Source: Escherichia phage DCP548
Length of the DNA stretch: 64,000 nucleotides
Sequence record: PQ671645.1
Strand: one strand, 5' to 3'
Both the position numbers and the translations under genes were made by a program. Of this stretch, positions 2,499 through 26,499 are shown in pieces. The notes under the pieces are model-generated. The model did no database searches and had not been told where the DNA came from. It was given only the letters and a program-made list of their open reading frames with translations. How positions within the stretch are numbered: position 1 is the first letter of the stretch; each line of letters opens with the position of its first letter.

Positions 2499-2747
2499 TT
2501 ATTCTTTTTCGCGAATAATAATTACTTGTTGAGGCTGCTGAGCAGATTTCTTTTCGGCAACGATAGACCAAATTAAAGTTCCAATCCAACCAATCATCGT
2601 CCAGTTAAAGAGTAAAGATACAAAGAAGATTGCTGTTGTGCTTTTTGTGCCACGAATAAGCGCGATTACCCAAGGCAGCATGTAAATGATGATTGAACCA
2701 ATACCTGCGATTAAAACCGCTACTGAACTAGCTACGAATAATTCCAT
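2499..2747 (-). CDS. Imm-family superinfection immunity membrane protein
   Basis: 82 aa, two TM segments, YMLPWVIALIRG...NWTMIGWIGTLIWS resembles the Imm_superinfect family consensus. Confidence 0.55.
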   Translation of the reverse strand: MELFVASSVAVLIAGIGSIIIYMLPWVIALIRGTKSTTAIFFVSLLFNWTMIGWIGTLIWSIVAEKKSAQQPQQVIIIREKE

Positions 2748-2808: not shown

Positions 2809-3177
2809 TTAATTAAATTTGTTTAAACGTTCAATACACTGGACGTAGTTATTTGCGATTTGTTTCTGGGTAGGCTCTTTACCAGTTGTTTCAACATAGC
2901 GAATGAATGCGATTTCAGTAGCCTGTAGACAATGTTCTTTAACGCGTTGTTCTTTTGACAATGCTACAGTATCAGAATCACGATAACGTTGAGCATGAGC
3001 ATCAGCTTGAATCATTCGATTACCTACAGTAACCGGGTCTTCCACTTCAACTTTAGGTTGGTTGTACTGTTTAACATTCGGGTTATAAATCAATTGGCCA
3101 ACATTATTAGGGATAAAGCCATGGGCACCACATCCGGTTAATCCAAATACCATTGCTAAAGCGATTAATTTTTTCAT
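2809..3177 (-). CDS. putative lipoprotein
   Basis: 122 aa; N-terminal MKKLIALAMVFGLTGC lipobox. Confidence 0.5.
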   Translation of the reverse strand: MKKLIALAMVFGLTGCGAHGFIPNNVGQLIYNPNVKQYNQPKVEVEDPVTVGNRMIQADAHAQRYRDSDTVALSKEQRVKEHCLQATEIAFIRYVETTGKEPTQKQIANNYVQCIERLNKFN

Positions 3178-3963: not shown

Positions 3964-4012
3964 CTCCAGTAGTTGATAGGTCTATAATAACACAACTACT
4001 GGAGAAGTAAAC
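3964..4012 (-). promoter_or_regulatory. early promoter with 12-bp inverted repeat, upstream of Arr-like gene
   Basis: Minus GTTTAC, 17 nt, TATTAT; perfect inverted repeat CTCCAGTAGTTG / CAACTACTGGAG flanks the -10. Confidence 0.55.
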
Positions 4013-4387
4013 TTAAAAATGTAATTTAGATACATCTGCGTTGATTTCACTTTGGTTTGCGTCATATGCAATTAAACGAACCGCTTTAGATGGGTCATTC
4101 AATGCATAGAAATGATGGAACATTGCTCGAACGATATCACCATTTACGAGTTCTACCTGGATAGGAGAACCTTTTTCGAGTTGGAAATGTTCATAAGCTT
4201 TGATGGTTCGCAGATAATCAAGTTTTTGATTTCCGGCTCCAACGATTTGTACGATACGTTTGCCCATGTTTTCCATACGAGATACAATAGTTTTAGGAGC
4301 AAGAATAACGTAGGTTGCCAGCGGAGAAACTACTTCAACAGTTGTGTTTTCGGTGATTGCAGTAAAAATTGCTTGAGACATATTCAT
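4013..4387 (-). CDS. hypothetical protein
   Basis: 124-aa minus ORF, ATG at 4387 with GAGAGG RBS; early promoter upstream. Confidence 0.5.
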   Translation of the reverse strand: MNMSQAIFTAITENTTVEVVSPLATYVILAPKTIVSRMENMGKRIVQIVGAGNQKLDYLRTIKAYEHFQLEKGSPIQVELVNGDIVRAMFHHFYALNDPSKAVRLIAYDANQSEINADVSKLHF

Positions 4388-4416
4388 AATGTTTTCCTCT
4401 CGGTTAGTGTAAGTAC

Positions 4417-4446
4417 ATCATATCATGCCTAGAGGGAGATGTAAAC
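4417..4446 (-). promoter_or_regulatory. early promoter upstream of ORF 4013..4387
   Basis: Minus GTTTAC, spacer, TGaTATGAT extended -10. Confidence 0.5.
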
Positions 4447-4453
4447 CCCGAAA

Positions 4454-4469
4454 GGAGACCGAAGTCTCC
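4454..4469 (-). other. intercistronic RNA hairpin with UUCG tetraloop
   Basis: GGAGAC-UUCG-GUCUCC on minus-strand RNA just after the gene 41 stop, directly upstream of an early promoter. Confidence 0.5.
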
Positions 4470-4475
4470 TTTTTA

Positions 4476-5918
4476 TTAAAATTTTAACTCATTGGCTAAG
4501 CTATCTAGGTCAGCACGTGTTGCTTTGGCTTTACCTACGCGTTCCGTACGATTCACCTCTGCCTGACGCATCTGAGCACCTGCGTTTTCATTTACTGTGT
4601 TAGGTGTGTTCATGCCTTCTTGCTCAATCTCAACCCATTTCTGATTGCCTTTACGTACACCCATCAGGAATTTATTCCACTTATTCTTATCACCATATCG
4701 TGATTTGATTTGTTTGATAAGTTGTTGTTCAGCTTGTGCAAGTTCTTCGGTTTCAATTACGGCCAACATGAAATCTGCCGTTGCTGGTAAACCTGCTGAT
4801 TCTGCAATATCGCTCATGTTCATATCCGAAGCATCCCATGCTGCACGTCCTACTTGAGCTGCAGTCCATAGAACTGTTTCAGATTCTACTGCTAATGCAC
4901 GAAGTTCTTCTGCGATAGCTTTAACTAATGTGTAACTATTTTCAGTGTAAACTCTGATGCGACAAGACCCACAAATACCTAAGTAATCAACCATGATTAC
5001 AGATGGCACAAAGTTCTTCTTGAGTTTCAATTCATTAAGCAATGCACGGAATGTATTAGCATTAGCTCCGCCAGTAGGATACTGTTTAACTACTAAACGT
5101 CCTAATGTGGATTTTGAACGCCATTTTTCCATCTTGGCTTTATATTCAGCATAAGATACGTTACCATCATCGATATCATCGAGCGATACGTCAAGCATAT
5201 TTGCATCTATACGCTTAGCACAAACTTCTTCAGCCATTTCCATGGAAATATAAAGAACATTATGTCCTGTTTGAAGATAATCTGCAGCAAGTGAACAAAG
5301 GCCTAAAGATTTACCAACGTTAACACCGGCCATTAAAACATTCAGTGTACCGGTTTCAGCACCACCTTTAGTGATTTTATTCAGAATGTTTAATTTGAAC
5401 GGGACCTTACGTGCTTTGTTCAGATAAGAAAGCCAGCGTGCTTCGTAGTCTTCCATCCAGTCGTGTCCAACATAACTATCAAACGAAATTGAAAGTGCTT
5501 GACGCATAATATCAGGAATAGCTCCTACGTCAGGCATTTTCTTGTTACGTTGTTCTGGAGGTAGTTCAGCATTAGACTGAATCTCAATGATTTTGGATGT
5601 AGCATTATACATCGCTTTTTGCTGGACATATTTCTCAGTTTCTTTAACCAACCATTCGTGGTCTTCAGGAGTATCAGCCAATTTTTCAATTAGGTCTGAA
5701 GTTCCTTTATATTCGGCTTCAGTTAAAGAACTGTTATCTAAAGCCACCTTTAATGCATTTATAGATGGCATTGCATTATATTCGTTAACGTGGCTCTTTA
5801 TAATTTTAAATACATTTTTTGCCGGTCCACGCTCAAAATACTCAGAATCCATATAAGGCCAGACCTTAGAAAAATAAGCCTGGTCATATACTAGATGAGA
5901 CAAAATAATTTCTACCAC
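4476..5918 (-). CDS. 41: replicative DNA helicase (DnaB-like) gp41
   Basis: 480 aa; Walker A GVNVGKS; size and synteny match T4 gp41. Confidence 0.93.
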   Translation of the reverse strand: MVEIILSHLVYDQAYFSKVWPYMDSEYFERGPAKNVFKIIKSHVNEYNAMPSINALKVALDNSSLTEAEYKGTSDLIEKLADTPEDHEWLVKETEKYVQQKAMYNATSKIIEIQSNAELPPEQRNKKMPDVGAIPDIMRQALSISFDSYVGHDWMEDYEARWLSYLNKARKVPFKLNILNKITKGGAETGTLNVLMAGVNVGKSLGLCSLAADYLQTGHNVLYISMEMAEEVCAKRIDANMLDVSLDDIDDGNVSYAEYKAKMEKWRSKSTLGRLVVKQYPTGGANANTFRALLNELKLKKNFVPSVIMVDYLGICGSCRIRVYTENSYTLVKAIAEELRALAVESETVLWTAAQVGRAAWDASDMNMSDIAESAGLPATADFMLAVIETEELAQAEQQLIKQIKSRYGDKNKWNKFLMGVRKGNQKWVEIEQEGMNTPNTVNENAGAQMRQAEVNRTERVGKAKATRADLDSLANELKF

Positions 5919-9977: not shown

Positions 9978-11138
9978 TCATTCTGGGTACCTCAAAGCGT
10001 CGTCAGAGTTAGTTATATCAATAATAGATATAGAATTTTCTGATAACCCATTTTTAGATAACTGACGTTTATAATATCTTTCACAATATGTACACGTCGT
10101 CCCGCAGATTTCATTAGCACAATCGAAATCTGGATGTTTGAACCACCTTTTTTCTAAAAAGCCATCTAACAAAGAGGTTTCAATATTTACCGTATGTGAA
10201 AACTCGGTCTCATTTTCAAGAGTGAAAATGGTCTCTAAAGGCTTCCACAATTCCAACAAATTACCTTCAAATTTTTCAGAAGCATAAGCTTCAAGAACTT
10301 TCAAAATGTAGTCTGTGCTACCTGTACGTCCTGAAACTTTGAATTGAGTGATACCAATATCATTATAAAGTTTCAAATCTTGAGGACGAACAAAACGAGT
10401 TCTCAACCAGTTAAATGGGTCTGTATCACGAGCTTTAATACAGTGCTGCATAGGATATCCGTTTAAGGATTTAGCATCATCAGCTGTAACATCAGTACTA
10501 TGGAAAATATAGCAAGAGTCACGATAGCTACAATGTGTTGTATACCCTTTACCAGCATTAGAACAGAACTCATTTACAAGAACTTCAAATATTATATTGT
10601 TCTTATTACAAAACTCTGCTGCACGCTTCAGGAAAGAAACTGAACGGTTCTTATGAATTCCACAGCAGACCTTTTTGATATTATATTGGTCGTGCAAGTA
10701 TTTGATTTGAGTTACAGCATCGACATGTAGAATTGTTGAAACTTCAATCTCAATGTCTTTATTGACTTCACGAACAATTTCCATAACAACAGGGTTAGCG
10801 ATAGTAATACGCCATACGCCTATTGACCAAAGATACTGAACATAATCCTGAATAGCTTTCTTCTTCCACTCAACTAGTTCTCTTTTTGAACCAGGATTTA
10901 TCGTGTTGAGTGTATAGTTAAAGCAAATACCTAATTCGTTACAACGTTTAACGTAATCTTCTAACATCTTTTTGTCAACGTCAGGAAGCCTAAAATCAGG
11001 TCTGGCTGCTACAAAAGCCATTTCTCTTGTAGAGCCGTATACTTCATTTATCAAGCTATTAGGATAAGTTTTATTGAGCTCTACGATTTTATCAAGAAGA
11101 GCTAAATCAAAATTCGTTCCGATTTTAAAGGTATTCAT
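9978..11138 (-). CDS. Cys-rich enzyme of unknown function (possible Fe-S protein)
   Basis: 386 aa; C-terminal FDCANEICGTTCTYC (C-x4-C-x3-C-x2-C) plus EFCSNAGKGYTTHCSYRDSC; first gene downstream of the sugar-pathway genes. Confidence 0.5.
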   Translation of the reverse strand: MNTFKIGTNFDLALLDKIVELNKTYPNSLINEVYGSTREMAFVAARPDFRLPDVDKKMLEDYVKRCNELGICFNYTLNTINPGSKRELVEWKKKAIQDYVQYLWSIGVWRITIANPVVMEIVREVNKDIEIEVSTILHVDAVTQIKYLHDQYNIKKVCCGIHKNRSVSFLKRAAEFCNKNNIIFEVLVNEFCSNAGKGYTTHCSYRDSCYIFHSTDVTADDAKSLNGYPMQHCIKARDTDPFNWLRTRFVRPQDLKLYNDIGITQFKVSGRTGSTDYILKVLEAYASEKFEGNLLELWKPLETIFTLENETEFSHTVNIETSLLDGFLEKRWFKHPDFDCANEICGTTCTYCERYYKRQLSKNGLSENSISIIDITNSDDALRYPE

Positions 11139-11192: not shown

Positions 11193-11594
11193 TTATAGAT
11201 TCGGTTTATATGATTTAAATGTTTCGAATTCGCCTTTATTCATAAGAGCTTTGAATTCGTCAGGACGCATAGCTTTGTCGTCGATAATCCAATCATATAC
11301 TGGTTTATGTGTTAGCAAATTATGGTACTTCAAGCCAATGTTTGCCAAGTTCTGAATCAGACTTGGGAGAATGTCAATTGCTATACGGCCAGGACCTACT
11401 GACTTCATACCGCGAGCAGTGTAAAGCGTTATTGTATGCCCTGCATCATACAGGGCATTAATGGCAGACACCATTTCGACGTCTGGTTTGAAGTTCACGT
11501 AATCACGATTGTTATTCCACTCTGTTATACAATCATCGACATCAAAACAAAGATTAAGCATGTTTTCTACACGGTGCATTAGATTCGTTCCCAT
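11193..11594 (-). CDS. HAD-superfamily phosphatase, KdsC-like
   Basis: 133 aa; motif I FDVDDCI, later TARG and K...DD motifs. Confidence 0.6.
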   Translation of the reverse strand: MGTNLMHRVENMLNLCFDVDDCITEWNNNRDYVNFKPDVEMVSAINALYDAGHTITLYTARGMKSVGPGRIAIDILPSLIQNLANIGLKYHNLLTHKPVYDWIIDDKAMRPDEFKALMNKGEFETFKSYKPNL

Positions 11595-13264
11595 TGATGA
11601 GTGATATCGCCACCGATTGGACGATAGGAAACACCAGTTTCTTTATCAGTTAGTACCCATTTACCAGGATTTTTTGTAATCAGAGTAGCCGTTACAGGTT
11701 CTGCTACGTCATAACTAATAGAGCCGTCCTGAAGTACACGGCCCATGTTACGTAATTGCTTAGTCAGAAGTTCCATACCTTTATAATATGCGGCTACCGC
11801 TTTAAGTGGATTATTCTTGAAATAACCACCTAATGCAATCCAGATAATTGCCACTGCCAAATGATGATACTCGTTAAACGAACTCATCTTTCCATATTTG
11901 TAAACTAATGGATTGATGTTAATAGTCACATTACAAGTTGTTTCATCAATAGTAAATTGCCCCCAGGTCGGATTAGCATTGAATTCATCATAACCTGAAA
12001 CAGCATAAAGCACTTTAGCTTCATCATACAATTTTGGCCCATAAATCTTGGTTTCGCCAAAATATCCACGAGGGTCGATAAACTTGACTTCACCATTATC
12101 AGTAATCATAGTATTACTAAAGTTCGGGTCACCATGAATAACAGAGTACTGTCCCTGAGAACGGTTATGATAACGAATAAGGTGTTCTAAAGCTTGTTTC
12201 AGCATTGGCTTCAGACGCCCAATCTTAGTGTAGTTCACATGTGTGATTTTACCAAATGAATCAATCAATGGTTGAATACTTTCACAACGATCAATAACTT
12301 TCGTATAGAACTCTTTAGTGAAATCACGACGAACAGTTTCAGGACTTACAAAATAAGTGTCTGTGCTGAATTTCAGTGCGTCTAAAATTGCATCAACAAT
12401 TTGTGGACGAGCAAGACTTGATTTGGATTTAATATATTCAAATGCCGGCTTACCTTTAATGCGTTCCATTTCAAAGTTATTTTCATTAACAGAAACTAAC
12501 TGAGGAACTGAATCTGATTTCACTTTAAGATACCATGAAATCTCATCTTTCTGAAGAGCTCGGCCCTGTTCGGTTAATGCGAATTTAGTTACAGTTTCTT
12601 CACCGATTTCAACTGCATTAAAACTACGATTAAGTTCACGAACTTCATGAGCCTTTTCAAGTTTAGGCATATCACCTAAATCAATTAGATTCATAAGCTC
12701 TGATTTATTGAATGCGCTGCCGTAAAGGAATTCTACGAAATCACGTCCTTTGCAGTATTCATGAATTTCCTCATCAGTAGAACCCATATAGAATTCCCAG
12801 TCTTTGAACTGATAAATTCCTACAACATTACCACCTGTTGAACCTACGTTAGTGATATTTTCACCGTCGAAATTATATCGACATTCGTCACCCTTAACAT
12901 AGATTGCGTTAACATTCCAAGACCATGAACCAAAATCGGGAATAATATCACACCAGTTAACAATTACATTATGGCCGTCTAAATCTTTGTGCAATTTAGC
13001 AAGAGCATAAGCAGAACCATATGCTTCATCAACTGTACGAATAGTCACATTGAACCCTTCTTGCTCACAATAAGCTCGAACAGTTTCAGCAAATTTTGAA
13101 TGAACTACTACAATAATTTCGTCTGCGCCAAGGTCAGAATAAATTGTATACAAATTGCTCAGAATAGTGTCTTGTTTATAGTTAACAAGCACCTTAGGAA
13201 TATGATGCGTTATTGGATACAAACGAGTTGCCAGTCCAGCACCAAGAATAACAGCTTTTTTCAT
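11579..13264 (-). CDS. bifunctional sugar-1-phosphate nucleotidyltransferase / kinase (LicC-LicA-like fusion)
   Basis: 561 aa; N-terminal ILGAGLATRLYPIT...PK (GxGxRL nucleotidyltransferase signature); C-terminal HGDPNFSN and FIDPRG (Brenner and DFG-like kinase motifs). Confidence 0.65.
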   Translation of the reverse strand: MKKAVILGAGLATRLYPITHHIPKVLVNYKQDTILSNLYTIYSDLGADEIIVVVHSKFAETVRAYCEQEGFNVTIRTVDEAYGSAYALAKLHKDLDGHNVIVNWCDIIPDFGSWSWNVNAIYVKGDECRYNFDGENITNVGSTGGNVVGIYQFKDWEFYMGSTDEEIHEYCKGRDFVEFLYGSAFNKSELMNLIDLGDMPKLEKAHEVRELNRSFNAVEIGEETVTKFALTEQGRALQKDEISWYLKVKSDSVPQLVSVNENNFEMERIKGKPAFEYIKSKSSLARPQIVDAILDALKFSTDTYFVSPETVRRDFTKEFYTKVIDRCESIQPLIDSFGKITHVNYTKIGRLKPMLKQALEHLIRYHNRSQGQYSVIHGDPNFSNTMITDNGEVKFIDPRGYFGETKIYGPKLYDEAKVLYAVSGYDEFNANPTWGQFTIDETTCNVTININPLVYKYGKMSSFNEYHHLAVAIIWIALGGYFKNNPLKAVAAYYKGMELLTKQLRNMGRVLQDGSISYDVAEPVTATLITKNPGKWVLTDKETGVSYRPIGGDITHQWERI

Positions 13265-13305
13265 GTTGTGGTCCTCATTGGTAAGTAGGAGTATTGTACA
13301 CTATT

Positions 13306-13449
13306 CTAGTTAAAGCATTCATACTTTGCTTGTAGTCCAATCATAATCCATCCAATTACAAGTGTTGGAATCATTACCGGAGCCGTTAAGCTCCAGTAGA
13401 TAGTCATGACAAGCATCAATAGTAAAAGTCCTATTGTTATTGCTTTCAT
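13306..13449 (-). CDS. small hydrophobic peptide (47 aa)
   Basis: Hand-found: ATG overlaps the isomerase stop (ATGA); MKAITIGLLLLMLVMTIYWSLTAPVMIPTLVIGWIMIGLQ...; below ORF-track size cut-off. Confidence 0.35.
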   Translation of the reverse strand: MKAITIGLLLLMLVMTIYWSLTAPVMIPTLVIGWIMIGLQAKYECFN

Positions 13450-14081
13450 TGTTCGCCTCGTAACATGGCACCTAGTGCACCGCCAGGGTGGAACTTAAGG
13501 AAATCATTAGAGGTAAATCCACGTTCAGACGAAAGGTTGATAGCAAACGTATCGATAAGCGCTAACAACAATGTAGTGGACATTGTCGGAGCTAAAGAGT
13601 TCTCGTCAACTTCTACAGCGATACCGGTACAGAACGTATAATCAAAAAGAGCTTCGTATTCTTGTGGAATGTCAGGGTTACAATGCAACAGAATCTGTTT
13701 GACGTTCGGACGAATCATTTTAAGATGCTTAGCCACGCCTATCATTTCTTCAGTTTTACCAGAACGACTAATATGAATCAACACATCATTAGGCGCAATG
13801 AATCCTGCATCACCGTGAGAATAATGCCCGGTGTTCAAGTACATACTCGGGATACCGAGTGAAGCAAATGTCTCAGAAGCTTTAGTTGCGATATTAGCGT
13901 TCTTACCAACACCTGTAATAATTACACGACTTTCATAATTACTAAGTCCAGGGCGTCGAAGAGTTTCTAGAATAGCATTATAACGAGCAGGGTTTTGACT
14001 AATTACTTTGGCCATAGCGGCCAAAGAAGAAGCTTGTTTTATGATTGCGTCAATAGCGATAGTAATAGGAGTAGTTTTCAT
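13446..14081 (-). CDS. SIS-domain sugar-phosphate isomerase, arabinose-5-phosphate isomerase-like (KdsD/GutQ)
   Basis: 211 aa; GVGKNANIATK SIS motif and C-terminal FHPGGALG characteristic of KdsD/GutQ. Confidence 0.7.
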   Translation of the reverse strand: MKTTPITIAIDAIIKQASSLAAMAKVISQNPARYNAILETLRRPGLSNYESRVIITGVGKNANIATKASETFASLGIPSMYLNTGHYSHGDAGFIAPNDVLIHISRSGKTEEMIGVAKHLKMIRPNVKQILLHCNPDIPQEYEALFDYTFCTGIAVEVDENSLAPTMSTTLLLALIDTFAINLSSERGFTSNDFLKFHPGGALGAMLRGEQ

Positions 14082-14121
14082 ATTTCTCTCATTTAATTAG
14101 TTTACCGTCCATGTCATTATA

Positions 14122-16833
14122 TCAAAAATCGAACATATCGAATAGAGATGCTTTCTTCTCGTAATCGAGTTTCGCTGCTGATGTGAATCCTTCAAGTGGT
14201 TTAATAAATGTCTTCTCAAGGAGAACAGTGTAGTCCATCCAATGAAGTACGTCGTCTTTAATTAAATCTGTGATTTCAGTACCAGAAGGCCATGCGATAC
14301 ATTTATCACCGAATGGGTTTCCTTCGCGTAAAGGCAGAACATATACTTTTTCACCTTCTACAACTTGCGGTGCATCGATATTACCTTTGATAGCCCGGTT
14401 ATACGTCAGAATTCCACGAATATGGAACGGGCATTTGGGACCAGGGAATCCACCTACATCATATTTAGCAATGTTATTCGCAGAAGATACCGACGCGATG
14501 CTAATATAATTCAATTGACGGAATTCTTTTTCAAACTCTTTAAAATATTCTTGTAATGATTCTTCACCTTCTTGAAGCATACGACGAATACATTCTTTAA
14601 GAGCTTTCTGTACTGCTTTAGGAGTCGAAGATTTCTGAGTCTCTAGACCCATGATTTTGAGTTTAGGCTCAGCGTAACGAGTACCTTCCATATCCCACAC
14701 GTTTAATGCATAACGTTTCTTACCAGTCCAGAATCCACCAATACCTTTAGAACCGAGTGGAGGACCAGCGATAGCTTCTCGGTCCATGAACATTAAGTGT
14801 TGTTTATTGTTCATGTATTCACACATTTCACGGAAACCTCTATCAATAGCTGGTTCCATACGTTCACGTGCAAACTTATCTAAGAAGTCTACCCAATGGT
14901 TGGTATCACGGAATTTAGATTCACCAACCTTATCGATAATTTTATCAGCAGATACGTAAATAGAGTCTGTATCACCATAAAGAACGAAAGCTTCACCTTC
15001 TGTGCCACAAACTTCATTCAGATATTCATTAACTTTACGTTCAATCCACTGTAAAGCCATTTGACCAAATGTTGTGATTGCAGTAGCATTACGCAAATCA
15101 TAATAACGAAACCAAACGTTGCCAAGTGCACCATAAAGTGAGTTGATAAGCAATTTACGGTTAATTTGGGCAGTCATACCTGCAACTTCAGTACGTTGAG
15201 CTCTAAACAACATTTCATTAAGAGATTTAGCAGACAACTTTTTAATCTTTTCTTTAATCTCATCGCTGAAGTCGAAACGATAATCAACATCTAATGGTTC
15301 GTCAACAGAAAGATTAGGATTATGCAATGCCTCTTTAATTATTTCACCATTACGTTGAGCTGCAAGCATGTAACCTTTATGTTCTTTACGTTGATTAAAG
15401 ACCTTAGTGATTTCAGTTGGAACTACACCATCACGGTCTTTATAATACATCATGCCGTTAGGAGAACAACTGTACACATCAGAAGGACGTTCAGCAACAG
15501 CGTTAATATAATCATGCAATGGAGCTACTTTAAACGTTCCTGCTATTGTTTCTGGGCTAATATTCACTTGGCGAATAATACTTGGATACAGAGATGTAAG
15601 GTCGAAACTCATTACATATTTGTATCGATTTGGAATAGGTTCCTTAACAAAAGCGCCGGGATAAGGTTGAACCGGGTGAGAACGACCTTGTGGAATCACC
15701 TTGTTCTGCTCTTTAAGGCTATTAAAAATAATAGCATCCCATGTTTTAATTGGGCTAAACACAGATTGAATCTGTATCTTAGCATAATAACCCATGTCCA
15801 AACTCAAGTTGATGAACTGACGCTTAGCATCAATTTGCAATACACGATACACATCGATAATGTTATAAGAAATATATCGTTGGTGATTGCTTTCACGAAG
15901 CTTAGAAATAGGGCCGTCATATTTCAGTTTACCAACGTTCAATTCAAATTCTGAAATGTAATCCAGAGAATATGACGGCTGATTGGTAAAAGAGAATTTT
16001 TTGTAAAGGTCAATGTAATCAAGAACAGAGATACCGAATAATGTAATGATTTCACGAGAACCATACATGTTTTCGATAACTTTAACACGAGTTTTACGAT
16101 GTGGTGATAAACGTTTCGCAGTAGATTCGCCAAAAATATTCTTGATTCGGTTATACACATATGGAATATCAAATGACTCAACGTTCCATCCAGTCAAAAT
16201 GACAGGAGTTTTCTGTTGCCAGAAGTTGAGATATTCCATCAACAATTCTTTTTCGTTATCGAACGGCATATAAATGATTTTATCGATAATTTCGGATGGA
16301 ACTTCATCACCGCCTTGTTCTTGAAGCTTAGCAGCGATTTCAATAGACCATTCTTCTACATTACCATATGGAGAATTCAATAGATCAAATACGTAGAACC
16401 TGTCGTCAATTGAGTCATAATGGGTGATAGCATCAATCGGATGTTTTGCTTGTGACGGCTCAGGGAACCCATCTGGAGATGTTACTTCGATGTCGAAGTT
16501 AGCCACACGAATTTTTGTATGGTCGTATTTGATTTCATAGTTATAAGTGTCAGACAAATACGCCAATTTGAAATCGTCCATGCCAAGTGCTTCAAGTCCG
16601 ATATCTTCCATGCGTTTAATCCATTGTGAGGCATCACGCATATTGGCGAACAACTTACGAGTACACGGCTTACCGTAGATATCGAAATATTTCGTAGCCT
16701 GACTTTCTGGACAATGAGCAAACAGTGATGGTTTATATTCTACTTCACGAGTACGTTCACGGCCGTTAGAATCGATGTAACGTTCAAAAATTGAATCACC
16801 AATCTGTTCAACCGTTAAGTAAAATTCTTTCAT
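14122..16833 (-). CDS. 43: DNA polymerase gp43 (family B)
   Basis: 903 aa; MKEFYLTVEQIGDSIFERYIDSNGRE..., exo motif FDIEV, pol motifs YGDTDS and SLYPS; matches remembered RB69 gp43. Confidence 0.97.
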   Translation of the reverse strand: MKEFYLTVEQIGDSIFERYIDSNGRERTREVEYKPSLFAHCPESQATKYFDIYGKPCTRKLFANMRDASQWIKRMEDIGLEALGMDDFKLAYLSDTYNYEIKYDHTKIRVANFDIEVTSPDGFPEPSQAKHPIDAITHYDSIDDRFYVFDLLNSPYGNVEEWSIEIAAKLQEQGGDEVPSEIIDKIIYMPFDNEKELLMEYLNFWQQKTPVILTGWNVESFDIPYVYNRIKNIFGESTAKRLSPHRKTRVKVIENMYGSREIITLFGISVLDYIDLYKKFSFTNQPSYSLDYISEFELNVGKLKYDGPISKLRESNHQRYISYNIIDVYRVLQIDAKRQFINLSLDMGYYAKIQIQSVFSPIKTWDAIIFNSLKEQNKVIPQGRSHPVQPYPGAFVKEPIPNRYKYVMSFDLTSLYPSIIRQVNISPETIAGTFKVAPLHDYINAVAERPSDVYSCSPNGMMYYKDRDGVVPTEITKVFNQRKEHKGYMLAAQRNGEIIKEALHNPNLSVDEPLDVDYRFDFSDEIKEKIKKLSAKSLNEMLFRAQRTEVAGMTAQINRKLLINSLYGALGNVWFRYYDLRNATAITTFGQMALQWIERKVNEYLNEVCGTEGEAFVLYGDTDSIYVSADKIIDKVGESKFRDTNHWVDFLDKFARERMEPAIDRGFREMCEYMNNKQHLMFMDREAIAGPPLGSKGIGGFWTGKKRYALNVWDMEGTRYAEPKLKIMGLETQKSSTPKAVQKALKECIRRMLQEGEESLQEYFKEFEKEFRQLNYISIASVSSANNIAKYDVGGFPGPKCPFHIRGILTYNRAIKGNIDAPQVVEGEKVYVLPLREGNPFGDKCIAWPSGTEITDLIKDDVLHWMDYTVLLEKTFIKPLEGFTSAAKLDYEKKASLFDMFDF

Positions 16834-26221: not shown

Positions 26222-26286
26222 GATATTTTCCTCATTTTAAGACGATAGGAAGATAATAACATTCGTCTTCCTATCGTTGTATATTA

Positions 26287-26499
26287 TTAACCGAACTTTT
26301 TAGCGCCTTTCCAGCCTTCGTACATAGTTGCGCAAGTCAATAGCACAGCATGTTGACATTCTTTGTATTTGTAAATCCAGAACCAACGTAAAAAGTCTTC
26401 ATCCTCAACGCCGTTGAGTTTCATATTGGCAAAGAATTCGGCACGTTCTTCACGAAGTTGCCATGACACAATATTTTCAGGATTCATTTTGTGTTCCAC
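26287..26499 (-). CDS. hypothetical protein
   Basis: 70-aa minus ORF. Confidence 0.4.
   Translation of the reverse strand: MEHKMNPENIVSWQLREERAEFFANMKLNGVEDEDFLRWFWIYKYKECQHAVLLTCATMYEGWKGAKKFG

Follow-up and report, generated by a model that had tools for sequence, protein, structure and literature searches.

A conserved micro-protein gene of the Y02C family, predicted to encode an inner-membrane hairpin, beside the arabinose DNA-modification genes of Escherichia phage DCP548

The question raised by this locus is why a very small and very hydrophobic peptide should be encoded between two genes of a cytoplasmic sugar pathway, and whether it serves that pathway or is an unrelated gene that lies beside it. 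The reading that we favour, with a probability for the whole of roughly 0.8, is that the open reading frame (ORF) is a member of the Y02C family, an independent gene of T-even phages that encodes a predicted inner-membrane hairpin and is not a component of the arabinose pathway.

The window analysed here, by which we mean the whole stretch of 64,000 nucleotides from Escherichia phage DCP548 (PQ671645.1), is that of a T4-like phage of the genus Mosigvirus, RB69 group, and between positions 11000 and 14300 its identity is 98.5% with phage JS09 and 97.4% with RB69. The genes of the micro-ORF region all lie on the minus strand, and their transcriptional order is gp43, a SIS isomerase, the micro-ORF, a nucleotidyltransferase/kinase, a HAD-type phosphatase, a U32-peptidase-like protein, a small ORF and a gp42-like gene, the last of these being a homolog of pyrimidine hydroxymethylase. 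The features closest to the micro-ORF are given below.

16833..14122, minus strand: gp43, DNA polymerase.
13446..14081, minus strand: SIS-domain arabinose-5-phosphate isomerase, 211 aa, homolog of RB69 ORF055c and upstream partner of the micro-ORF (homology; PMC13326640).
13456..13459, minus strand: GAGG, Shine–Dalgarno-like, 6 nt 5' of the micro-ORF start and within the isomerase coding sequence (read from the sequence).
13446..13449, minus strand: ATGA overlap of the micro-ORF start and the isomerase stop, a signal for translational coupling (from the sequence).
13306..13449, minus strand: Y02C-family micro-protein gene, 47 codons plus TAG (PHROG 3610, PF26865).
13272..13276, minus strand: GAGGA, ribosome-binding site of the nucleotidyltransferase/kinase fusion gene, with a 7-nt spacer to the ATG at 13264 (from the sequence).
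11579..13264, minus strand: bifunctional nucleotidyltransferase/kinase, 561 aa, corresponding to RB69 ORF053c+052c, AfhE-like, downstream neighbour (homology; PMC6024577, PMC13326640).

The micro-ORF translates as MKAITIGLLLLMLVMTIYWSLTAPVMIPTLVIGWIMIGLQAKYECFN and ends at a TAG codon (13308..13306). An earlier note on this DNA had described a 47-codon ORF whose ATG overlaps the stop codon of the isomerase and which is followed by the ribosome-binding site of the fusion gene. Both parts of this description hold: the ORF runs on the minus strand from 13449 to 13306, its ATG (13449..13447) and the isomerase TGA (13448..13446) share the sequence ATGA, and GAGGA follows at 13276..13272 with its 7-nt spacer. 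The GAGG element on the 5' side of the ORF is weak or variable in other genera. The nucleotidyltransferase/kinase gene starts 41 nt past the micro-ORF, and in the arabinose-type phages defined below this distance is 38–41 nt.

The modification module also includes, on the minus strand at 9978-11138, a gene for a U32-peptidase-family protein homologous to RB69 ORF050c. Since RB69-type DNA carries glycosylated 5-hydroxycytosine (PMC13326640), its activity may be that of a base hydroxylase and not of a protease.

At 37% GC an open frame of 47 codons has a probability of about 0.03 per frame of arising by chance, and the case for a gene therefore rests on comparison across phages. For this purpose 32 loci were compiled, consisting of the window, 11 annotated records (JS09, RB69, Bas47, T4, T2, SP18, VR7, MY742, PEi26, TG1 and X20) and 20 IMG/VR contigs, which between them hold 27 distinct coding sequences and 22 distinct proteins. 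The frame is intact at all 32, with a length of 45–49 codons, down to about 50% amino-acid identity. Its start overlaps the stop of the upstream gene every time, the form being ATGA in 30 of the 32 loci and TAATG or TGATG in the remaining two, and the overlap is kept whichever gene is upstream; conservation of the ORF and of this overlap in related phages, which the earlier note had named among the checks to be made, is thus borne out. Entropy at the first, second and third codon positions is 0.82, 0.42 and 1.22 bits respectively (order 3>1>2, 32 loci), pairwise dN/dS by the Nei–Gojobori method lies between 0 and 0.5 and mostly below 0.35, and the Mosigvirus sequences that were sampled are separated by one to three synonymous substitutions and by no non-synonymous ones. 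In the alignment of the 22 cluster representatives eight positions never vary (M1, Y18, P24, M26, W34, Q40, C45 and N47) and a further set is nearly invariant (K2, L8, L9, I17, I27, P28, T29, L39 and K42), giving the conserved motif P-x-M-I-P-T ... W ... L-Q-x-K-Y/F-x-C-F/I-N. On this comparative evidence the 47-codon ORF is a genuine conserved gene. The opposite view, in which the frame is open by chance or is an artefact of annotation and goes unexpressed, can draw on the 3% probability per frame and on the lack of annotation in several records, including the JS09 RefSeq record and T4 NC_000866, but is almost entirely dismissed by the frame intact at all 32 loci, by a substitution pattern that is that of coding sequence, and by the want of an RNA family or stable RNA structure as another cause of the conservation. 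A conserved RNA element was considered as such a cause and was ruled out, as an Rfam search of the micro-ORF region gave no match above noise and the predicted RNA fold of the ORF 3' end and spacer was no better than that of shuffled sequences (z=0.46).

As to which family the gene belongs to, the peptide matches PHROG 3610 with E=6.8e-27, residues 1-47 aligning with profile positions 1-47 of 47, and the Pfam family PF26865, named Phage_T4_Y02C, is assigned in precomputed annotation to proteins 94–96% identical to it and to all 21 homolog clusters. Searching the T4 locus with tblastn recovers a homolog with 52% identity over residues 2-47 (E=2.8e-15), whose UniRef title is 'Uncharacterized 5.6 kDa protein in Gp42-imm intergenic region'. 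With this full-length profile match and T4 homology go agreement in size and motifs and in the position and overlap that are typical of the family, namely downstream of gene 43 with the start on the stop of the upstream gene (32/32 loci), and on these sequence features the ORF is a member of the Y02C family (PF26865/PHROG 3610). It is also already catalogued: the exact 47-aa protein of the window is in public databases as a hypothetical protein of many Mosigvirus genomes (137 contigs), and both the Pfam and the PHROG family exist. As judged by profile search the family is very narrow, since among 1.84 billion representative proteins there were three true clusters, all from enterobacterial T-even phages, two spurious repeat proteins (P0060 and P0062) and no bacterial or distant relatives. 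Neither the peptide nor its T4 homolog had a meaningful match in a Pfam-A copy without PF26865, in NCBIfam or in PADLOC, where no family of the defence and anti-defence models was matched at E<=10; the PDB likewise gave no match, whether searched by sequence with the family profile or by fold with Foldseek and the AlphaFold model, and a literature search found no study of the Y02C ORF.

The T4 protein is the natural point of reference. It shares with that of the window the family, the length class of 45–49 aa, the invariant residues, the place between genes 43 and 42 and a start that overlaps the stop of the upstream gene. It differs in its partners, which in T4 are imm upstream and gene 42 downstream with a 7-nt gap, whereas in the window the isomerase is upstream and the nucleotidyltransferase/kinase follows 41 nt downstream, behind a MotA-box motif. 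In RB69 the identical protein is annotated as ORF054c, with the internal Met12 taken as its start.

The Afh pathway is reportedly described by He et al. in 2026 (Nat Chem Biol). The isomerase, the AfhE-like fusion enzyme and the AfhF-like phosphatase are assigned to the synthesis of NDP-arabinofuranose, which is used for the arabinosylation of modified cytosine in RB69-type DNA (PMC6024577; PMC13326640). The micro-ORF is absent from the pathway proteins described in these two papers, in which each step belongs to a soluble enzyme, and the summary given in PMC13326640 credits sugar activation in particular to AfhE and AfhF, both soluble. Searches with tblastn found the peptide in 771 phage records, among them the isomerase-less phages T2, RB33, SP18, VR7 and PST, and several hundred T-even records have Y02C without the pathway. 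The gene occurs in three contexts: imm, Y02C, gene 42 in the T4/T2 group; imm, Y02C, Imm.1-like lipoprotein in JS98-like phages (SP18, VR7 and others), where gene 42 is not at the locus; and isomerase, Y02C, nucleotidyltransferase/kinase in the arabinose-type phages, which comprise Mosigvirus, Kanagawavirus, Tegunavirus, Winklervirus, Enterobacter phages and Pectobacterium phage PM2. The 32 loci divide into 18 of the arabinose type and 14 of the imm type. Conversely, only a gap of 59–73 nt that holds no such ORF separates the isomerase from the nucleotidyltransferase/kinase in the Acinetobacter phages Maestro and Acj61, Maestro being listed among the phages with arabinosylated DNA (PMC13326640), and none of 57 isomerase-carrying Acinetobacter records is among the Y02C tblastn matches. 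The conserved residues of Y02C are identical in phages with and without the pathway, and domain scans found no catalytic or substrate-binding domain in it.

These observations bear on the possibility, raised in the earlier note, that the peptide could anchor the pathway. In a fuller form of this idea it would be a membrane anchor or scaffold for cytoplasmic NDP-arabinose synthesis and would tether the isomerase or the bifunctional enzyme near the pentose-phosphate supply or the replisome. The idea is understandable for an ORF that has a pathway gene on either side, with translational coupling to the first of them, and keeps its place in the order isomerase–ORF–nucleotidyltransferase/kinase in Mosigvirus, Kanagawavirus, Tegunavirus, Winklervirus, Enterobacter phages and PM2. 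Co-occurrence nevertheless fails both ways, with Y02C lacking the pathway in T4, T2, SP18 and VR7 and the pathway lacking Y02C in Maestro and Acj61; together with the same conserved residues in either setting and the credit given to soluble AfhE and AfhF in the summary cited above, this makes an anchoring function highly improbable. Because co-occurrence fails in both directions, the distribution of the gene places Y02C outside the arabinosyl-cytosine pathway, as its neighbour only, and a tempting idea of a membrane anchor for phage arabinose DNA modification is removed. A lineage-specific secondary role in the pathway is possible for the arabinose-type phages, since the order isomerase–Y02C–nucleotidyltransferase is conserved across at least five genera. 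The other option that the earlier note had offered, an unrelated gene, fares well, the same family being found in T4, T2, SP18 and VR7 without arabinose genes and after imm with the ATGA overlap. Y02C is thus an independent T-even gene, probably older than its present neighbourhood: it keeps a fixed place in a plastic region between genes 43 and 42 while the flanking genes vary, and in the lineage of the window it is flanked on both sides by sugar genes, with imm and imm.1 elsewhere in the genome.

One connection with the pathway genes does appear at the level of DNA signals, in the form of two motifs at and just beyond the 3' end of the ORF.

13311..13317, minus strand: TGCTTTA, MotA-box-like, in codons C45-F46-N47, candidate -30 element of a middle promoter (motif match).
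13293..13298, minus strand: TACAAT, candidate -10 element, 12 nt after the MotA box (motif match).

The last codons of the ORF in the window read GAA TGC TTT AAC TAG, and the arrangement TGCTT(T/C)A, 12 nt, TACAAT is present in 18 of 18 arabinose-type and 0 of 14 imm-type loci. This layout matches the consensus of the MotA-dependent middle promoter of T4, and the motif, as a candidate promoter, probably drives the downstream pathway genes (the nucleotidyltransferase/kinase operon), such that in the arabinose-type phages the last Y02C codons would double as its MotA box. Conservation of the C-terminus would not be a mere by-product of such a promoter, as C45 and N47 are also invariant in phages without the MotA box and are encoded by different codons (TGC/TGT and AAC/AAT). 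A scan of 13100-14250 for generic sigma-70 promoters and terminators gave counts not above those of shuffled sequence; its scope was the generic class, to which MotA-type promoters do not belong.

An inverted repeat, (T)GGTACA-ATGGA-TGTACC(A), is found within the 30–40 nt that follow the micro-ORF stop in arabinose-type phages outside Mosigvirus (loci L008-L011, L015-L020, L022 and L023), where it overlaps the TACAAT -10 element and is a possible operator or 5' hairpin. In the window the repeat is degenerate and the spacer folds no better than shuffles.

In another alternative Y02C is a coupling spacer that passes ribosomes from the upstream to the downstream gene (gene 42 in T4) and the peptide itself is functionless. 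It suits the T4/T2 arrangement, in which the ORF fills the gap between imm and gene 42 exactly, starting on the imm stop and ending in TGAGG, part of the Shine–Dalgarno sequence of gene 42, 7 nt before the ATG. Yet a functionless peptide is hard to reconcile with dN/dS well below 1 and with eight columns that are invariant among 22 representatives, several of them through codon changes. The arabinose-type phages have the downstream gene 38–41 nt away with its own promoter motif and ribosome-binding site, and Merlin joins imm to gene 42 with no spacer at all, so that we consider this reading improbable. On the reading that we favour, Y02C is most likely translated by ribosomes that have just completed the upstream early gene, since its start always overlaps the upstream stop.

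What the product might look like can be taken from prediction. The peptide has a mass of about 5.5 kDa and is very hydrophobic (GRAVY 1.36), with two hydropathy maxima, and an AlphaFold2 model built on a 22-sequence alignment has helices at residues 2-22 and 24-45 (mean pLDDT 89.4, pTM 0.61), the break between them falling at the invariant Pro24. The earlier description of a peptide with two transmembrane segments is consistent with both the hydropathy maxima and the modelled helices. There is one lysine near each end (K2 and K42), and the five-residue connector is uncharged; by the positive-inside rule this would put both termini in the cytoplasm, and Y02C is probably a two-helix hairpin in the host inner membrane with that orientation. 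The conserved residues fall mostly in the connector, the second helix and the C-terminal tail, while the first helix is no more than hydrophobic, a pattern that on the model fits an anchor helix joined to a specific contact surface.

Elsewhere among the T-even phages Y02C usually follows imm. The window carries its imm genes at some distance from Y02C.

2499..2747, minus strand: imm (superinfection immunity) homolog, 65% identical to T4 Imm.
2809..3177, minus strand: gene for an Imm.1-like lipoprotein, just upstream of imm.

They lie about 10.5 kb from Y02C, beyond genes 42, uvsX, 40 and 41, unlike T4, where imm.1 and imm adjoin gene 43, and there is no copy of Y02C after imm in the window. 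The window imm is followed by an early-promoter-like sequence, TTGTTTACA ... TATAGT, at about 2455-2498, and downstream of it an ORF of 97 aa with a lipoprotein-like N-terminus occupies 2142-2435. T4 Imm resembles Y02C in being a small, early and hydrophobic inner-membrane protein and is its coupled neighbour in T4, T2 and the JS98-like phages; it differs in its 78–83 aa, its approximately four helices, its known target, the tape-measure protein gp29 (bioRxiv 10.64898/2026.03.06.709160), and in having no detectable homology to Y02C. The possibility that Y02C is a partial duplicate of Imm, raised by a weak 'GW.M.G' resemblance, was ruled out by a comparison of the two alignments with hhalign, which gave a probability of 0.7% over four aligned columns.

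Y02C might still be a dedicated partner of Imm that helps to insert, stabilise or tune it as it blocks the tape-measure-protein channel, the lineage of the window having been separated from imm by rearrangement. The start of Y02C sits on the imm stop as ATGA in T4, T2, SP18, VR7 and five further loci, which would coordinate the synthesis of two proteins that are both of inner-membrane type, and the window does retain an imm gene. Imm by itself, however, excludes T4, and it binds gp29, co-purifying with a tape-measure fragment (bioRxiv 10.64898/2026.03.06.709160). The two genes also occur independently of each other. In Citrobacter phage Merlin (locus L036, 1495-2444) imm runs straight into gene 42 with a coupling overlap of 4 nt and Y02C is missing from the junction, so that it is evidently dispensable or lost in Moonvirus; the T-even phages of Klebsiella appear to be in the same position, with 138 Imm matches and no mention among the ten organism names that are commonest in the Y02C matches. 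Y02C in its turn is uncoupled from imm in the 18 arabinose-type loci. Taking these with the lack of profile similarity, a dedicated partnership is doubtful, and on gene content and sequence Imm and Y02C are neither homologous nor obligate partners.

Looser associations are nonetheless apparent: in T4, T2, SP18 and VR7 the genes for the Imm.1-like lipoprotein, Imm and Y02C stand side by side, though not always in the same order. PEi26, X20 and MY742 also have a lipoprotein weakly similar to T4 Imm.1, encoded after gene 43 and just before the isomerase (2870-3379 in L009, 2914-3333 in L011 and 2861-3388 in L008), and in SP18 and VR7 such a lipoprotein gene lies directly after Y02C (2628-3158 in L005). 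The three genes form a loose cluster downstream of gene 43 in most lineages, which the sugar genes interrupt in the arabinose-type phages, and the arrangement suggests a mobile 'envelope protein' cluster around Y02C. Under our favoured reading of an independent membrane-protein gene, Y02C, Imm (a multi-helix inner-membrane protein) and Imm.1 (a lipoprotein) would together make up a small, early, envelope-targeted group, in which Y02C would use its conserved second helix and C-terminal tail to contact a conserved partner in the inner membrane, of host or phage origin. From gene neighbourhood alone, a role related to the envelope or to superinfection alongside Imm and Imm.1 is proposed with low confidence. 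Peptides of fewer than 50 aa that bind larger membrane proteins have been reviewed (PMC11323111), and Y02C is like the small inner-membrane regulators of bacteria and phages in its size, its hydrophobic helical character and the concentration of conservation in one helix and a short tail. By this analogy its size, helices and conservation pattern suggest protein–protein contact within the membrane, while searches of Pfam, PADLOC, NCBIfam and the PDB revealed no relation in sequence or fold to any characterised small membrane regulator.

A bolder version, which we put forward only tentatively and consider rather unlikely, makes Y02C an important early membrane factor, either a third component of envelope protection or superinfection exclusion beside Imm and Spackle, or an inhibitor of a conserved inner-membrane protein of the host. 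It would have been missed because the T4 reference annotation omits the gene, and its retention in the hyper-plastic region between genes 43 and 42, together with the constant overlap, would then reflect a need for early and stoichiometric expression. Were a function for Y02C to be found, it would lengthen a list of T-even early membrane proteins that is still short and includes Imm, Spackle and rI among others. The data give no hint of a novel type of mechanism, and the main value of the locus is in the annotation corrections that it prompts and in a small, tractable candidate for work on the early membrane proteins of T-even phages.

The corrections concern both missing genes and misplaced starts, Y02C being unannotated in T4 and in several RefSeq records of Mosigvirus and wrongly started in RB69. 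In T4 the ORF has 49 codons and lies at complement(26227..26376) of NC_000866.4 (4728-4877 of locus L004), where the RefSeq record shows the gap between imm and gene 42, which it fills exactly, as empty. The JS09 RefSeq record has no Y02C annotation. RB69 ORF054c is annotated as 36 aa from Met12; since Met12 is not conserved and the ATGA start is, Met1 is on this comparison the better start for Y02C. Genome-wide screens based on such annotations will have missed Y02C, as the T4 and Mosigvirus records omit the gene and the RB69 start is wrong. The record of Enterobacter phage vB_ECC_MY742 (locus L008) likewise leaves Y02C unannotated, and it carries at 3979-5871 a 630-aa 'hypothetical protein' whose start overlaps the Y02C ORF (4001-4144) in another frame; this is apparently the nucleotidyltransferase/kinase, annotated from a start too far 5'.
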